A DNA stretch of 55,899 bases, from positions 1 to 55,899 of the IMG/VR virus record IMGVR_UViG_3300023174_003189. One strand, 5' to 3'. Positions 7,103-13,788 of the stretch are shown here, piece by piece (position 1 is the first letter of the stretch; every line of letters begins with the position of its first letter). The stretch is from a virus. Taxonomy: Duplodnaviria > Caudoviricetes. Both the position numbers and the translations under genes were made by a program. The notes under the pieces were generated by a model. It did no database searches and was not told the DNA's origin. It worked only from the letters and a program-made list of their open reading frames with translations.

Positions 7103-7261
7103 ATGACACCAATCCATCCAATAGATTTGTGGGTATATGTTATGCTCAATCTTTGGTTTCTTCCACACACACTACTAAAACACACAAATGAACGAACTAA
7201 TTTATGTCCTAGTAACAACACATCTTACAATTATCGCCGTAACTCTGTATCTTCATCGTAG
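7103..7261 (+). CDS. Small hydrophobic ORF (MTPIHPIDLWVYVMLNLWFLPH...)
   Basis: ATG 4 nt after a TAAATA motif; overlaps the desaturase start. Confidence 0.35.
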   Translation: MTPIHPIDLWVYVMLNLWFLPHTLLKHTNERTNLCPSNNTSYNYRRNSVSSS

Positions 7262-7898
7262 TCAAACTCATCTATCTGTATCATTTCACCCGTTAGTAAA
7301 TCATTTTTTTCGTTTTTGGTTATGGTTGACCACAGGCATGGTTACAAAAGAGTGGGTAGCAATTCATCGTAAACACCACAGTATGACAGACCAAAAAGGT
7401 GATCCACATTCACCTCAGCTATTTGGTATATGGAAAGTTTTATTTGGTGGTGCTTTGTTATATAACACGGCAGCCAAAGATAAACTGATGGTCAATGCTT
7501 TTGGTAAAGGAACACCAGAAGATAACATTGAAAGAAATTTATATACACCTTTTAATTACTTGGGTATCTTTATTTACTTTTCAATTTGTCTGTATTTGTT
7601 TGGTGTTTGGGGTATTTTAATTTGGGCAATTCAAATGCTTTGGATTCCTTTTTGGGCTGCTGGTGTAGTCAATGGAATAGGTCACTATTGGGGGTATAGA
7701 AATGTCGAAACGAGAGAATCATCTAGAAATATTTTCCCTCTTGGTATTATTATTGGTGGCGAAGAGCTTCATAATAATCACCATAGCGATGCTGGTTCTG
7801 CCAAGCTTAGTAGGAAATGGTTTGAGTTTGACATAGGTTGGTTCTATATCAAACTCTTAGAGAAATTGAAACTGGCAAAACTAAGCAGCAAACGATGA
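7188..7898 (+). CDS. Delta-9-type fatty acid desaturase
   Basis: His boxes HRSQTH, HRKHH, HNNHH; DPHSP; FDIGW. Confidence 0.93.
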
Positions 7899-8204
7899 TC
7901 CACAACCACAAGTTGTTTTAGCATTTGGATTACTAATTACAAATTGTGAATTAAATTTTTCTTCTTTATAATCTAGTGTTGCACCTTGTAAATACTGTGA
8001 AGATATCATATCAACAACAACTTTGACACCTTCATTATCAATCACAAAATCATCTTCAGCAATGGTTTCTTCAAATGTAAAACCATATTGATAGCCAGAA
8101 CATCCACCACCTTGAACAAACATTCTCAAAGCAGCATTAGGTAACTTTTCTTCAACCAATAAATCACGAACTTTATTAATTGCATTTGCAGTTATTGTTA
8201 TCAT
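7881..8204 (-). CDS. erpA: A-type Fe-S carrier ErpA/IscA
   Basis: GGGCSG and C-terminal CGCGSSF. Confidence 0.92.
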
Positions 8205-8574
8205 GCTTTCCTCTGTAATCGTTTATCGCAGCCTTAATTGCATCTTCTGCAAGGATGCTGCAATGTATTTTGACGGGCGGTAACGAGAGTTCTTCTGCAA
8301 TCTGAGTGTTCTTAATCTGCTCAGCTTGCTCCAACGTTTTACCCTTGACCCACTCGGTGACCAGCGATGAGCTAGCAATCGCCGAACCGCAACCATATGT
8401 TTTGAATTTTGCATCTTTAATTATCCCATCTTCCACTCGTATTTGTAGTTTCATTACATCACCACAAGCTGGTGCACCTACCATACCGGTACCAACATTG
8501 ACATCACCTGTATCTAGTTTTCCTACATTACGTGGATTCTCATAATGATCTATAACTTTATCTGAGTATGCCAT
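8176..8574 (-). CDS. iscU: Fe-S scaffold IscU
   Basis: [35 protein letters not shown]. Confidence 0.97.
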
Positions 8575-8866: not shown

Positions 8867-8941
8867 TGGTTGCGGGGGAAGGAATCGAACCTACGGCCCC
8901 TGGATTATGAGTCCAATGCTCTACCTCTGAGCTACCCCGCT
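8867..8941 (-). tRNA. tRNA-Met(CAT), initiator-like 1:72 mismatch
   Basis: Cloverleaf, loop CTCATAA, TTCGATT T-loop, encoded CCA. Confidence 0.9.
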
Positions 8942-9746: not shown

Positions 9747-10459
9747 TACCATTCTCCAGACCAATGTTTAATATTAAATTCAGCATAAAATTTTTTTTTT
9801 AAATTTTCCCAATCCATATTTTTTTCACCTTTATAAATTATCGTATCGTTTGGAGGGCTTTCTCTGTATGTTTTAATGAAAGGTATCTTTTGTAAATAAT
9901 CACGCATCTGATTAAATTTTTCAACACCAGGATTTGTGTTAATCATTTCACCAAACACCACCATGGTTACCGCATGCATATATGTTTGTGGCCCTAAAAA
10001 GAAAACATTTGTGTGTCCTTCATATCGTCTTTTTAAGATCAACTCAATCGTTTGTGCTTGAATAGGATTTTTTGGTTCAGTCAACATGAAGTCTTGTGAA
10101 AAATCCCAATCCAAACAAGTTGGTAATACACATTTTATGCCATCAGTTACAACTTCTGATAAAGGCACATTGTAAAATCGGTCAATATCCATATAAAGAC
10201 CACCTTCATTATATAATTTAAACAACCTCCATAGATCGCTTTTCTCAACTATATGTATATTTTTAATTAAATTGTAATCTCTTTTGTTTAAAGTGGTTCT
10301 AAGATGCTCATCGATTTCATTATCATCATATACGGTGACTTTCCAATCTGGATTCATATCAATCAAATTACGCAAACCATTAAGTATGAGTGGTGATTGA
10401 CTATTCACCACATCTTTAGTTTTCCATGCAACGTGTGCAATTTTTGGTATGGAGCTCAT
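9746..10459 (-). CDS. DXD glycosyltransferase (OCH1/GT32-like)
   Basis: IPKIAHVAW, KSDLWRL..LYNEGGLYMDID, GP motif; likely start MSSIPK. Confidence 0.85.
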   Translation of the reverse strand: MSSIPKIAHVAWKTKDVVNSQSPLILNGLRNLIDMNPDWKVTVYDDNEIDEHLRTTLNKRDYNLIKNIHIVEKSDLWRLFKLYNEGGLYMDIDRFYNVPLSEVVTDGIKCVLPTCLDWDFSQDFMLTEPKNPIQAQTIELILKRRYEGHTNVFFLGPQTYMHAVTMVVFGEMINTNPGVEKFNQMRDYLQKIPFIKTYRESPPNDTIIYKGEKNMDWENLKKKFYAEFNIKHWSGEW

Positions 10460-10467
10460 TATAAATA
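10460..10467 (+). promoter_or_regulatory. gp55 late promoter TATAAATA for dnaJ
   Basis: Exact T4 late consensus 5 nt before the ATG. Confidence 0.65.
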
Positions 10468-10472
10468 AAATT

Positions 10473-11078
10473 ATGAATACAAACTTATATGATATTTTAG
10501 GCGTTTCTAAAAATGCAACATTTGAAGAAATTAAAGCCAAATACAAATCTCTTGCTCAGCAACACCATCCAGATAAAGGTGGTGATTCCGAATTATTTAA
10601 ACAAATAAAAAATGCTTACGAAATACTTAGTGATCCTATAAACAGAAAAAGATACGATACTACAGGACAATTTGAAACCAAATCAAGTTTACGAGATTCT
10701 GCTCTAGAGCAACTTAGTCGAATATTTTTCAATATAATATCAAATATTAACCCCGAAACTGATGATCCGATTCTTATTATGAAAAATGAAAGCAGGCGAG
10801 AAAAAGAAAATGTTAATCATAATATAAATGAATGTAATGGCCGTATGTTCAAATTAAAAAAAATAATCAATAAAATTAAAAGAAAAAATAATGATGGTGA
10901 AAATTTATTAAAGATGTTTGCTGAAAATCAATTAAAGAACCACGAAAATGAATTACAAAATTATATTAGGCAAATACAAATAATTGACACCATAATAGAA
11001 ATACTTGAAGATTATCAATATGGTGATGTTACAACTTTAATTGAAAACTTTATGAATCCTTCTCCTGAACAAGTATAA
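10473..11078 (+). CDS. J-domain (DnaJ-like) protein
   Basis: LYDILGV...HHPDKGG...AYEILSDP..RKRYD. Confidence 0.9.
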   Translation: MNTNLYDILGVSKNATFEEIKAKYKSLAQQHHPDKGGDSELFKQIKNAYEILSDPINRKRYDTTGQFETKSSLRDSALEQLSRIFFNIISNINPETDDPILIMKNESRREKENVNHNINECNGRMFKLKKIINKIKRKNNDGENLLKMFAENQLKNHENELQNYIRQIQIIDTIIEILEDYQYGDVTTLIENFMNPSPEQV

Positions 11079-11082
11079 TTAC

Positions 11083-11158
11083 TGGCTGTCTTGGCTGGGC
11101 TCGAACCAGCGACCCAATGATTAACAGTCATTTGCTCTACCGACTGAGCTACAAGACA
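11083..11158 (-). tRNA. tRNA-Asn(GTT)
   Basis: Canonical 76-nt cloverleaf with CCA. Confidence 0.95.
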
Positions 11159-11162
11159 ATTT

Positions 11163-11238
11163 TGGTGCCCCAACCATGACTCGAACACGGGACCTACTGA
11201 TTACAAATCAGTTGCTCTACCAACTGAGCTATTAGGGC
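11163..11238 (-). tRNA. tRNA-Thr(TGT)
   Basis: Canonical 76-nt cloverleaf with CCA. Confidence 0.95.
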
Positions 11239-11395
11239 TTTTTCTTGCGAGTGCGTTTCTAATTTTTGCTTTGATTTTTGGCTTGCTCGATTCTTCCAAC
11301 ATTTTTGTTAGTTGAGCAATATTTAGAGGACCTAATCGTGGTTTACCAGTTTTGGTCAGCATTGAATTTTTTTTCTTCGATTTGGAAACTGCCAT
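11201..11395 (-). CDS. Small basic protein whose 3' end overlaps tRNA-Thr
   Basis: AAGGA SD, Lys-rich 64 aa; stop codon lies in the tRNA anticodon loop. Confidence 0.6.
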   Translation of the reverse strand: MAVSKSKKKNSMLTKTGKPRLGPLNIAQLTKMLEESSKPKIKAKIRNALARKSPNSSVGRATDL

Positions 11396-11414
11396 AATAT
11401 AGTCCTTAGGAATT

Positions 11415-11484
11415 TGGAGCGGTGGCTTAGATTCGCACTAAGTGAGTAGATTGGACACCTACTCTGGTTCTATACCCCGACCGC
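11415..11484 (-). ncRNA. Atypical tRNA-Gly(TCC)-like RNA, 70 nt
   Basis: GCGG/CCGC acceptor, U73, CCA, TCC-centred 7-nt loop, 5-bp T-stem with TGCGAAT loop, reduced D-arm. Confidence 0.7.
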
Positions 11485-11501
11485 ATAAAAGAATTATAAC
11501 A

Positions 11502-12038
11502 TTATATAGGTTGATTGTCAATACTTATTTGTGGTACATTTCGCCAAGCTATTGGTTCTGGTGTTAGAGCTGCATCTGGATTACGGATATCTGAAAATAC
11601 TTCCCACAGTTTTTCTTTAATGGCAAACTTACTAAACAAACCAATCGATACGCCATATGCTTCTATTTCCCATGGTTCATCATAGTAATCTATATTTTCG
11701 GTAATTCTTTGGCCTCGCCAACGAGTACCATATTCATTTGTTTCACCGTAGGCATATTGCTTGACATGAACCATTTCATGTGCTAATGTTTCTAATATGT
11801 CATGTGAACCAGCAATTGGATTCAATTCAATTTGAAACTCTCTAGGTTTATTGCTTTCATTATAGTTAATAACATCTGCATAACCTAAAGCATCTATTTT
11901 AGAATCAAATTTAATACGGACAAAAATGTTTTCCAACATCTTTGGTGTCATTAATTGTTCAGCATAAAAAAAGGCAGCACGCTTCACAAACGGCCGAAAG
12001 CGTTTCTTATCGGGACATCCGATTATACTGAGTTGCAT
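11502..12038 (-). CDS. Zincin-like metallopeptidase
   Basis: LAHEMVHVKQY (HExxH) and PWEIEAY; TAAATA upstream at 12075-12080. Confidence 0.75.
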   Translation of the reverse strand: MQLSIIGCPDKKRFRPFVKRAAFFYAEQLMTPKMLENIFVRIKFDSKIDALGYADVINYNESNKPREFQIELNPIAGSHDILETLAHEMVHVKQYAYGETNEYGTRWRGQRITENIDYYDEPWEIEAYGVSIGLFSKFAIKEKLWEVFSDIRNPDAALTPEPIAWRNVPQISIDNQPI

Positions 12039-12088
12039 CTGAGGTTTCTCCTGTGAAAACCGACACTTCTCAAATATTTAGGTGCTCT

Positions 12089-12535
12089 CTAGATTTCACC
12101 AGGTGAAATTTGTTCTACTTCAACACCACAATTGTTTAAGAAGTCTATGCCGATGGTATCTCTATAAGAATTTCGGTAATATACCTTTCTAATACCAGCG
12201 GTATAGACTTGTTTGGCACAATGAATACAAGGAGCATGGGTCAGGAACATGGTGGATCCATCTCCAGATTCACTACCTCTAGCCAGTTTGGCTATGGCAT
12301 TAGCCTCTGCGTGGATCACTTCGTCCTTGGTTTTGGTGATAACTCCACCATCCTCATGTATTTCTACCACTTCTTCACACTCATTGGTCCATCCGGCAGG
12401 CATACCATTATAACCAATGGATATGATTCTATCATCTTTGACAATGATAGCACCAACCTGTAATCGTTTGGCGGATGATAACTTGGCGAATCTTTCTGCC
12501 ACATCCATATAAGCGTCAATAAATTTTTGTTTCAT
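12089..12535 (-). CDS. cd: dCMP deaminase
   Basis: GYNG, HAEANAI, PCIHC; likely start MKQKF. Confidence 0.93.
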   Translation of the reverse strand: MKQKFIDAYMDVAERFAKLSSAKRLQVGAIIVKDDRIISIGYNGMPAGWTNECEEVVEIHEDGGVITKTKDEVIHAEANAIAKLARGSESGDGSTMFLTHAPCIHCAKQVYTAGIRKVYYRNSYRDTIGIDFLNNCGVEVEQISPGEI

Positions 12536-12540
12536 AGTTT

Positions 12541-12617
12541 TGGTGGGCCTTGTAGGACTCGAACCTACGACCAAAGGATTATGAGTCCTCTGCTCTAACC
12601 AACTGAGCTAAAGGCCC
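12541..12617 (-). tRNA. tRNA-Ile2(CAT), lysidine type (or elongator Met)
   Basis: GGGCCTT/AAGGCCC acceptor, CTCATAA loop, resembles bacterial ileX. Confidence 0.85.
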
Positions 12618-12624
12618 CTTTGGT

Positions 12625-12798
12625 CTACCAACTACCGTCATCGACCCATATTCGAATCGTGATGGGTAATAATTCAATAATATATGATGTTGAAATTTCC
12701 CAAGCATCATTCTCACTACCTCTACTGCAAGCTATTCTCCAATGAAATGGATTCAGCTTCAATGTAATATTACAGCCTGAATATTTTAACCAATTCAT
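12625..12798 (-). CDS. 57-aa hypothetical (MNWLKYSGCNITLKLNPFHW...)
   Basis: Manual translation, ATGA overlap with the upstream ORF. Confidence 0.55.
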   Translation of the reverse strand: MNWLKYSGCNITLKLNPFHWRIACSRGSENDAWEISTSYIIELLPITIRIWVDDGSW

Positions 12799-13022
12799 TT
12801 ATACATTTCCATAACAGGTTCAGGAATATTGAATTGACTACGAATATATTTTTCTTTCATCATGTGTGGAATGTTTAGATATGGTTCTTCTAAAAGAAAT
12901 GGGCAAGGTTCTCCCCATTTATTTTCAGCCATAAACTTTTTAAACAATTCAATATCCTTTTTATTCTTAGGATCGAACTGCCTTTTTTGATTGTTCATTA
13001 ATTGGTAATTATTAAGAATCAT
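12795..13022 (-). CDS. Hypothetical protein
   Basis: 75-aa ORF in a coupled operon. Confidence 0.6.
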   Translation of the reverse strand: MILNNYQLMNNQKRQFDPKNKKDIELFKKFMAENKWGEPCPFLLEEPYLNIPHMMKEKYIRSQFNIPEPVMEMYK

Positions 13023-13265: not shown

Positions 13266-13331
13266 TTACCGATTTTTTGGATAATTCAACTGTTCCCATT
13301 CCTCATCGGATACGGGCCACCAGTTAGTCAT
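13266..13331 (-). CDS. 21-aa peptide MTNWWPVSDEEWEQLNYPKNR
   Basis: Start overlaps the hsp20 stop; AAGGA upstream. Confidence 0.35.
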   Translation of the reverse strand: MTNWWPVSDEEWEQLNYPKNR

Positions 13332-13788
13332 CTTTCTTTTCCTTGATGGCAATCTTTTTAATGGTATCTTGAGTTTGCACAAGATTTTCTAACCATACAC
13401 GCAACATACCATTTACCATTTCAGCCTGACCAATTTCAATCTTGTCAGCGATAGTGAATGAACGTGTGAAGTTACGGTTAGCGATTCCCTTAAAGAGGAA
13501 GTTTTCTTCTTCTTTGAGTTCATCTTCTTTTGCAGCACCCTTGATGACCAATTTATTACCTTCAAGTGTGATTTCAATATCAGACTTGGCAAAACCAGCA
13601 ACTGCCATTTCAATGACATACTTGTTCTTGCTTACTTGTTTGATATTGTATGGGGGATACGATGGTACATTCTTGGCAACGTTTTTAGTAACTTCTTCGA
13701 TGTCTTTGAAGAATTTATCGTAACCAACGGTGAATGGATCCAGCGTTTTGTGAAAGTCAAATAGACTTGGTAATAGACTTGTGGTCAT
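13324..13788 (-). CDS. hsp20: Small heat shock protein Hsp20 (IbpA-like)
   Basis: YPPYNI, IEMAVAGF, FKGIANRNFTRSF, NGML. Confidence 0.95.
   Translation of the reverse strand: MTTSLLPSLFDFHKTLDPFTVGYDKFFKDIEEVTKNVAKNVPSYPPYNIKQVSKNKYVIEMAVAGFAKSDIEITLEGNKLVIKGAAKEDELKEEENFLFKGIANRNFTRSFTIADKIEIGQAEMVNGMLRVWLENLVQTQDTIKKIAIKEKKDD

Follow-up and report, generated by a model that had tools for sequence, protein, structure and literature searches.

Staphylococci carry extra tRNA-Gly(UCC) paralogs, known as NP1-3 and, in S. epidermidis, Ia/Ib, that are described as non-proteogenic: they remain substrates of glycyl-tRNA synthetase (GlyRS), bind the ribosome poorly and have dihydrouridine at position 19 instead of the usual G19 (PMC7826273). 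In the T loops of their genes, TGC or TGT replaces TTC, and the tRNAs bind elongation factor Tu (EF-Tu) poorly; the same source states that they were detected only in S. aureus and S. epidermidis (PMC7826273). We found a related arrangement in a phage. The stretch of DNA that we analyzed, called the window here, comprises 55,899 nucleotides (nt) of a viral record (Duplodnaviria; Caudoviricetes; IMG/VR record IMGVR_UViG_3300023174_003189). Direct reading of its reverse complement reveals the gene of a 70-nt tRNA-Gly-like RNA on the minus strand at 11484..11415. On sequence grounds, this element belongs to an unannotated, widespread phage family of mini tRNA-Gly paralogs. We propose that it is a functional phage gene for a miniaturised tRNA-Gly(UCC) paralog, a mimic that would be chargeable with glycine and would not decode, and we give this proposal a probability of about one half.

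Like the staphylococcal paralogs, the phage RNAs are extra copies of tRNA-Gly(UCC) with an altered T loop, which contains UGC in the window copy and AGC or UGC in a second class of the family, class B/C. Unlike the staphylococcal tRNAs, which are full-size cloverleaves from one bacterial lineage with the known users FmhB, FemA and FemB (PMC7826273), the phage RNAs are viral, fall into two classes and are only 66-70 nt long, with a 3-bp D arm, a central stem of 7-9 bp and a variable region of 1-2 nt. The affinity for EF-Tu is attributed to the first three T-stem pairs, 49-65, 50-64 and 51-63 (PMC7826273); in the window RNA these are C-G, U-A and U-A. An earlier interpretation of this locus, made from the letters alone and referred to below as the sequence-only reading, had drawn the staphylococcal parallel. 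The part of it that concerns the TGC/TGT T loop and poor EF-Tu binding is consistent with the published account (PMC7826273), whereas a use of the cell-wall type found no counterpart, in that no Fem-family gene occurs in the five phage records searched.

Phage T4 also makes small stable RNAs of unknown role, RNAC and RNAD (species 1 and 2), from its tRNA region (PMC3014915). They share with the new family a position on the tRNA strand inside a tRNA cluster and the fact that they are small non-tRNA RNAs (NC_000866), but their lengths are 139 and 119 nt and neither forms a cloverleaf of the tRNA-Gly type. The family's covariance model, R1 (described below), was run on the T4 tRNA region with filters off and gave no match at rnaC or rnaD; it matched tRNA-Gly (17.9 bits) and three weak sites elsewhere (at most 7.5 bits, E 0.64-7.8). 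We also observed that rnaC has a T-arm-like motif, GGTTCGAATCC, near its 3′ end and that rnaD ends in ...CACCA (NC_000866 70908-71171; L338). This suggests that extra tRNA-cluster RNAs with tRNA-like 3′ parts are perhaps general in T4-like phages, although they are non-homologous as judged by R1.

Short mitochondrial tRNAs decode on specialised ribosomes. The window RNA resembles the reduced tRNAs of metazoan mitochondria in overall shape, with a lost core offset by altered stem lengths, but differs from them in that one class of the family has a non-decoding loop and in that a bacterial virus encodes it alongside ordinary tRNAs. Finally, phage tRNAs have been proposed to carry anticodon-loop changes that evade host anticodon nucleases (PMC10264068). 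The new family is similar in that its anticodon loop departs from the host-type consensus (G33, which also occurs in an otherwise canonical tRNA-Gly of contig L177). By contrast, the tRNAs in that proposal are normal decoders with point changes (PMC10264068), while the body of the mini RNA is wholly rebuilt and decoding is unlikely. Among the titles listed in literature searches, none describes a phage RNA of this kind.

Structure of the window RNA

The division into stems and loops given by the sequence-only reading for 11415-11484 matches the minus strand letter for letter (Table 1). The acceptor has the canonical seven pairs, with a single C-C mismatch at pair 6-67, and is followed by the discriminator and a 3′ CCA. 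A single G follows the acceptor strand as a linker, an A follows the D arm, and the variable region is 1 nt. Direct reading confirms that U8, the D-loop GG, U33 and the GTTC of the T loop are absent, as had been claimed; U55, a 4-bp D stem and a 5-bp anticodon stem are likewise missing. According to RNAfold, the cloverleaf is the minimum free energy structure (-24.9 kcal/mol, 73% of the ensemble). Its z-score is -3.06, and 1 of 200 shuffled sequences folds equally well. In this prediction C6 is bulged, and the central stem is lengthened to 8 bp with a 5-nt loop.

Standard searches overlook the element, as had been anticipated. In its standard (bacterial) mode ARAGORN calls neither a tRNA nor a tmRNA at 11415-11484, and Rfam gives no match there at the gathering threshold (29 bits for RF00005), while the four canonical tRNAs of the window score 64-77 bits. 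Likewise, a search against Rfam 15 at E ≤ 10, using both 2 kb and 91 nt of sequence, matched no curated family, tRNA and tRNA-like families included. The metazoan-mitochondrial mode of ARAGORN, by contrast, calls exactly these 70 nt as "D-loop mtRNA-Gly(tcc)".

Three other identities for the element were rejected. It is not a terminator, given that no T-run lies 3′ of it and that a terminator scan found none there. An attP site or integration remnant does not fit a complete cloverleaf in a T4-like phage, and a two-piece, tmRNA-like arrangement does not fit an acceptor helix that is already closed inside the 70 nt.

A family with two classes and a fixed glycine identity set

To collect relatives, the 178-amino-acid (aa) protein encoded upstream of the element was used as an anchor. 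A relative of this protein occurs in 594 viral-contig stretches, of which the best 80 were fetched; the downstream sequence was examined for 78 of these, since in L049 and L062 the contig stretch stops where the match does. For 32 of these 78 (L001-L032), the anchor gene is directly followed by the promoter found in the window and by a GCGG...CCGC-U-CCA element. A scan with the signature pattern places the family, RNAs of 66-70 nt, on at least 119 IMG/VR viral contigs. All fetched viral loci together hold 109 distinct copies with 80 unique sequences (59 class B/C, 20 class A and 1 other), as counted by a script whose pattern overlooks some variants later detected by the model. Class A, the type found in the window, is 70 nt long with the loop UGUCCAA. 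Class B/C is 66-68 nt long with the loop (A/G)YNCCC(U/C), and its T stem has four pairs, with a bulge in some copies. The two classes have common ends but distinct D, central and T hairpins.

There was no blastn match to a class-A or class-C RNA at E ≤ 1 in GenBank phages (50,697 records), and R1 matched none of the five cultured relatives Mosig, Melnitz, HTVC008M, S-SKS1 and S-SRM01 at E ≤ 0.1, in a search whose positive control recovered five of five element-bearing records. Species-representative bacterial and archaeal genomes contain 35 matches to the pattern, about the number roughly estimated for chance, and none of the 35 fits R1.

Compensatory changes support the structure. In a MAFFT alignment of 21 class-B/C sequences, 94.6% of the 441 cells in the four helices are paired, and 13 of the 21 pairs have compensatory changes. 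No column shuffle of 500 reached any of five measures, and slid controls were 24-58% paired. The covariance model R1 was built from this alignment alone, with no class-A sequence in it. In 488 kb of sequence it retrieved 17 class-B/C copies at 79-94 bits and 22 class-A copies that it had not seen, including that of the window (27.6 bits, E 1.7e-4), as well as one canonical phage tRNA-Gly(UCC) at 28.5 bits. Given these scores, the three kinds (class A, class B/C and canonical tRNA-Gly) appear to be about equally distant from one another.

A model-fitted alignment of 90 rows (83 atypical and 7 canonical tRNA-Gly) is paired in 95.6% of 1890 cells, with compensatory changes in 17 of 21 pairs and 384 cells. 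Its covariation score is 0.627 versus 0.196 when shuffled; none of 500 shuffles reaches four of the measures, and 5 of 500 reach the pair count. All seven pairs of the central stem have compensatory changes, all three D-stem pairs covary across classes, and three of the four modelled T-stem pairs covary. When sequences are folded singly, the full cloverleaf appears in 12 of 12 class-A sequences, and the acceptor helix and long central hairpin appear in 26 of 26 sequences. The family is real and under selection. The sequence-only reading had argued against random decay and had suggested a covariance model of phage homologs; the compensatory changes among the relatives, and the detection of the window copy by a model made without class A, bear this out.

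The conserved positions are unevenly distributed. Pairs G1-C72, C2-G71 and G3-C70 are each present in 90 of 90 rows, as is G53-C61, and 88 of 90 have G4-C69. In a set of 33 atypical rows, the ...CCGC-U-CCA end, U73 and the central-loop CC (C35-C36, in a numbering that assumes a 7-nt loop) are invariant, as are the first G of the D stem, the D-loop AUAG, G53, G55 and C56. Across the 90 rows, as judged by eye, U73 occurs in all, and the 3′ end is near-universal, with TCGC in two rows; the central-loop CC is in all 90. Free variation is seen at pairs 5-68 and 6-67, throughout the D stem and the seven-pair central stem, and at three pairs of the T stem. The glycine identity set in bacteria is given as U73, G1-C72, C2-G71, C35 and C36, and G10-Y25 as a consensus feature of tRNA-Gly (PMC9976931). 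By sequence comparison, the invariant set of the family is thus this identity list, the CCA and some nucleotides located at the usual meeting point of the D and T loops. The retention of the glycine identity elements (G1-C72, C2-G71, G3-C70, U73, CC and CCA), which had been noted for the window copy, holds across the family.

The three-dimensional shape also seems to have been kept. The central helix is lengthened (7 bp, plus the 3-bp D stem), and the D-loop G and T-loop C are otherwise invariant; in a divergent class-A variant (L297:4696-4763), the former is changed to U and the latter to A. This double change is a single possible compensatory change in a tertiary pair like G19-C56. Taken with the lengthened helix, it suggests that an L-shape with a normal distance between anticodon and CCA has been retained.

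The loops do not look like decoding loops. In class A, G33 is invariant and the remaining loop is identical to that of the canonical phage tRNA-Gly. Class B/C allows A, U or G at position 34, has C at 37 and can close the loop with an A-U pair between 32 and 38. Given the lack of U8, the D-loop GG, U55 and, in class A, U33, together with the unconstrained wobble position, the element probably does not decode on the ribosome. The sequence-only reading had described it as aminoacylatable and ribosome-excluded. Conservation, the retained identity set and the non-decoding loops make this the best-supported reading of the sequences.

At every locus listed by ARAGORN, the element lies on the tRNA strand within a tRNA cluster. 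A canonical tRNA-Gly(UCC) begins at most 10 nt downstream of 27 of the 109 copies (22 class B/C and 5 class A), commonly after 1-6 nt and after 1 nt in L042 and L115. Given this spacing, RNase P cleavage of the downstream tRNA would release the ...UCCA end of the element. The relatives therefore do not simply hold a canonical tRNA-Gly at this place, an outcome that would have counted against the sequence-only reading: the atypical form is conserved and coexists with canonical tRNA-Gly(UCC). Most of the genome records are fragments. In G003, a complete record of 236 kb, a single class-C copy accompanies three canonical tRNA-Gly genes. Three partial records from the sublineage of the window (82, 68 and 55% complete) contain no GCGG...CCGCTCCA gene other than class A.

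The classes replace each other and also occur together. When the flanks of five close relatives are aligned, the promoter and the downstream Shine-Dalgarno (SD) sequence and start of the open reading frame (ORF) are nearly unchanged, and the interior of the RNA is swapped between classes A and B. L034:2537-2988 has a class-C and a class-A copy with two small ORFs between them; in L317:2254-2397 and L329:5916-6058, class-A and class-C copies are 6-7 nt apart; and L289:10188-10787 holds a class-A copy and another variant, followed by a canonical tRNA-Gly. Class replacement and coexistence may be signs of conflict or diversification. Further tandem or near-tandem pairs of differing atypical copies occur in L249:4120-4259, L309:2144-2364 and L297:4626-4763, and several second copies in such tandems have new acceptor and D arms (GCGAA.., GCGAG.., GCGGGAG..) with an unchanged UGUCCAA loop. 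In the class-A variant L309:2144-2211, the T stem is the same as in the canonical phage tRNA-Gly and the loop alone differs, which is consistent with the family having arisen through tandem duplication of a tRNA-Gly(UCC) gene of the phage itself.

Some full-length tRNA-Gly genes are also unusual. One of 74 nt, L177:6269-6342 (+), is otherwise canonical, with the D-loop GG and the T loop TTCGATC, but has the class-A UGUCCAA loop including G33; it could represent an intermediate or a decoding tRNA that resists nucleases. Odd T loops are found in full-length phage tRNA-Gly genes of L101, L178 and L133 (74-76 nt) and of L118, L150 and L185. These loops are AGCGTTA and ATCGTT / ATCAATG-type, the D loops are without GG, and the contigs are partly GC-rich. 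The genes may represent an independent set of non-proteogenic-like tRNA-Gly in other phages.

Genome setting

The 55.9-kb window is a fragment from a virus record with an estimated completeness of 33%. It derives from a T4-like myovirus, as indicated by genes for gp43 polymerase, gp23 capsid, gp20 portal, gp18 sheath, gp17 terminase and a gp46-like nuclease, and further by RegA, the gp62/gp44 clamp loader and the gp45 sliding clamp. In its capsid protein the window phage shares about 65% identity with Pelagibacter phage Mosig and Methylophilales phage Melnitz; the figure is about 62-64% for Pelagibacter phage HTVC008M, a Stenotrophomonas phage and Synechococcus phages. The coordinates of the element and its surroundings are given in Table 1.

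Table 1. Parts of the mini RNA gene and neighbouring features in the window
Feature	Position	Strand	Basis or remark
Acceptor 5′ strand, G1 C2 G3 G4 U5 C6 G7	11478..11484	-	direct reading, RNAfold
Reduced D arm, 3-bp stem GGU/ACC and loop AUAGA	11466..11476	-	direct reading, RNAfold
Central anticodon-like arm, 7-8 bp stem, loop UGUCCAA (G33, U34 C35 C36)	11444..11464	-	direct reading, RNAfold
T arm, 5-bp stem, loop UGCGAAU (G55 replaces U55; C56 retained)	11426..11442	-	direct reading, RNAfold
Acceptor 3′ strand, discriminator U73 and encoded CCA	11415..11425	-	direct reading
Sigma-70-type promoter, TTGACA-17 nt-TATAAT, TG before -10	11493..11521	-	12/12 consensus matches
178-aa HExxH protein, weak SprT-like match, phrog_10499 (function unknown)	11502..12038	-	upstream gene
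Small basic ORF, 64 aa as read	11201..11395	-	downstream gene of the element's transcription unit
Canonical tRNA-Thr(UGU)	11163..11238	-	ARAGORN, Rfam
Canonical tRNA-Asn(GUU)	11083..11158	-	ARAGORN, Rfam
tRNA-Met	8867-8941	-	ARAGORN
tRNA-Met	12541-12617	-	ARAGORN
ORF of 41 aa	11442-11567	+	antisense overlap with the 178-aa gene

The element occupies a 106-nt gap between the 178-aa gene and a small ORF, with all three on the minus strand. Its promoter is the sole perfect sigma-70 site within 10900-12800, the -10 hexamer ends 8 nt ahead of G1 of the RNA, and relatives have a like arrangement. This promoter would drive the element as part of the phage tRNA cluster. It spans the last seven codons and the stop codon of the 178-aa gene and the next 9 nt. 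Given that the promoter is kept together with the C-terminus of this gene in relatives, the stretch appears to double as coding sequence and promoter.

The small downstream ORF has an SD sequence 20 nt after the CCA of the element and matches no Pfam or PHROG family. It is present in three of the five records searched and absent from the complete record G003. Its linkage to the RNA is thus not obligatory, and we rejected it as an obligatory partner. In relatives, the ORF encodes 52-68 aa with a common NPMLTKNGKPRLGPLN-type motif. In the window it has no stop codon before tRNA-Thr, reads 38 nt into this tRNA and stops inside it. A stop inside tRNA-Thr also occurs in 8 other distinct variants among those compared (overlaps of 10-38 nt); other variants end 2-10 nt before the tRNA. 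Where the stop lies inside tRNA-Thr, excision of the tRNA by RNase P would strip the mRNA of its stop codon.

Other tRNA genes are similarly close to coding sequence. The listed start of a dCMP-deaminase ORF (12089-12574, minus strand) is a TTG inside tRNA-Met 12541-12617, and an in-frame ATG (MKQKF...) a few nt past the 3′ end of the tRNA is the likelier start, so that the tRNA and the gene would be nearly spacerless. A gene for a DnaJ-domain protein lies beside the tRNA cluster on the opposite strand (10449-11078). Auxiliary genes, likewise next to the cluster at 7188-8574 and 13324-13788, encode a fatty-acid desaturase, IscA-/IscU-like Fe-S proteins and an Hsp20-like protein, the last named from its sequence. 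A desaturase is described as typical of freshwater SAR11 myophages (PMC7029224), and the gene may be a weak hint to the host of the window phage.

Sequencing runs gave little additional information. A search returned five runs, each with just 6-20% of the sampled words. In the four that were mapped, depth lies almost solely over the three canonical tRNA genes and comes from many organisms, and over the element there is a single 151-nt contig, at depth 3, from a run flagged "probably DNA".

Candidate functions and their implications

The identity set is fixed while the rest of the RNA varies, which points to selection for recognition by the host GlyRS and to a glycylated RNA. No phage-encoded synthetase was found, so charging would fall to the host enzyme. 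In the scheme that we propose, RNase P would cut at the downstream tRNA-Gly and free the element with its ...UCCA end, and the host GlyRS would charge the mini RNA with glycine. The product is probably a tRNA mimic that carries glycine and whose job lies outside ordinary translation. A more comprehensive statement, that a clade of uncultured T4-like phages carries mini tRNA-Gly paralogs of two classes that are charged by the host GlyRS, stay off the ribosome and serve an anti-defence or glycine-feeding role, is more tentative, at somewhat less than even odds.

As to the job itself, the most likely of the uses we considered, although itself on the unlikely side, is that of an abundant, translation-neutral look-alike of tRNA-Gly or glycyl-tRNA-Gly. 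Such an RNA would titrate or escape a host factor, for example a defence nuclease or a GNAT-type toxin. This use is favored by the class swapping, the coexisting classes and the very strong promoter. It is also favored by the G33 loop in the L177 tRNA-Gly, by the proposal of nuclease escape and by TacT, whose acetylation of Gly-tRNA-Gly is described as specified by U73 and G71 (PMC10264068, PMC9976931). The next most likely use, which we regard as doubtful, is suggested by the staphylococcal precedent: the RNA could be a reserved glycyl donor for a tRNA-dependent transferase, as in staphylococcal cell-wall synthesis.

Several observations weigh against the proposal that the element is a glycine-chargeable, non-decoding mimic, and some of them bear on the donor use in particular. 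In the five phage records, one of them 100% complete, there is no FemAB or Acetyltransf_6 gene (PF02388, PF13480; a host enzyme may still serve), no Leu_Phe_trans gene (L/F-transferase), and no tRNA-synt_2b (class-II aminoacyl-tRNA synthetase core) or tRNA-synt_2e (GlyRS-alpha) gene. The partner search covered these five families and did not extend to LPG synthase C, cyclodipeptide synthase, lantibiotic dehydratase or PEARL. The closest relatives in culture, with about 65% identity in the capsid protein, have Pelagibacter, a Methylophilales strain, Stenotrophomonas and Synechococcus as hosts, none of which is expected to use glycyl-tRNA for cell-wall bridges. A glycyl donor is therefore disfavored both by the lack of a Fem-type or L/F-transferase gene in all five records and by the hosts of the relatives.

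The remaining points concern the RNA. The GlyRS of some bacteria is described as also reading core nucleotides (PMC9976931), and the reshaped core may fail such an enzyme. RNAfold pairs positions 32-38 (Watson-Crick) in both classes, leaving a 5-nt loop, and this closure might hinder the reading of C35-C36 by GlyRS. Alternatively, it may be pairing with an RNA target that preserves the invariant CC. In addition, acceptor pair 7-66 is unpaired in 53 of the 90 rows, and the fitted alignments lean to the model, a bias of which the MAFFT class-B/C alignment and the single-sequence folds are free.

A role for the CC in RNA pairing is the basis of the strongest rival, to which we assign a low probability. 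The element could be an uncharged, tRNA-shaped regulatory small RNA whose C-rich loop (UCC/CCC) pairs with the G-rich SD sequences of phage or host mRNAs, with the tRNA-like frame serving solely for RNase P/CCA-type processing and stability. Staphylococcal small RNAs are known to have C-rich loop motifs directed at SD sequences. The CC/CCC is the sole loop feature common to all classes and is displayed in a 5-7-nt loop on a 7-9-bp stem, and the window copy lies 20 nt before an SD containing GGAC, which could pair with the loop GUCC. However, the possible pairing comprises merely 3-4 bp with no target identified, and copies are kept without a following ORF (L014-16, L031/32 and tandems with tRNA-Gly). 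A regulatory RNA also leaves unexplained the invariance of G1-C72, C2-G71, G3-C70 and U73 alongside the free covariation of pairs 5-68 and 6-67.

The position of the element suggests another rival, likewise of low probability: an uncharged part of the tRNA operon with a role in processing or stability. It would recruit RNase P and 3′ trimming enzymes or shield the 5′ end, and would resemble organellar tRNA-like punctuation signals. The element is indeed at the extreme 5′ end of the transcription unit in the window and elsewhere precedes tRNA-Gly by 1-6 nt, and T4 is described as also making two small stable RNAs from its tRNA region (PMC3014915). However, such a function would require no more than the shape of the acceptor and T arm; the invariant C35-C36, U73 and first three acceptor pairs would be unneeded. 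The element is also kept both with and without an adjacent tRNA, and two diverged classes side by side are hard to explain in this way.

It is improbable that the RNA is a working minimal tRNA-Gly of a mitochondrial kind, with a body reshaped to escape host nucleases. Such a decoder would account for the tRNA-Gly(UCC) call in the mitochondrial mode of ARAGORN and for a stack of D and anticodon stems (3+7) that equals the canonical length. The class-A loop departs from the canonical phage loop at position 33 alone, and class A is the sole gene of its kind in the three partial records mentioned above (55-82% complete). Against this, an invariant G33 takes the place of the expected U33, the RNA lacks U55 and the D-loop GG, and many genomes hold a canonical tRNA-Gly(UCC) right beside the element. 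Moreover, class B/C substitutes for class A at the same locus, and its loop (A, U or G at 34, C37, Watson-Crick 32-38) is not a decoding loop. A decaying tRNA-Gly pseudogene or chance fold would explain why standard tRNA finders and Rfam give no call, but can be dismissed given 80 unique sequences in 109 distinct contexts, compensatory changes in 17 of 21 pairs, the element's own consensus promoter and its detection by an independent model (R1).

Given that annotation tools are blind to this gene, a widespread class of tRNA-derived RNAs has probably gone unrecorded in phage tRNA clusters. Its conservation is unusually informative, in that nothing but the synthetase identity marks and a few nucleotides of the elbow is fixed, and every helix has been rebuilt. 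The role of odd phage tRNAs thereby becomes testable, by asking whether they are charged and whether they avoid EF-Tu. If they are charged and non-decoding, the RNAs would be the first non-proteogenic tRNAs outside staphylococci and the first in any virus, and a phenomenon known only from staphylococcal cell-wall synthesis would reach viruses. This would imply either a new principle of counter-defence, a sponge made of tRNA look-alikes, or an unknown pathway of glycyl transfer. The RNAs would also provide a natural, compact scaffold readable by GlyRS that could interest tRNA engineers.

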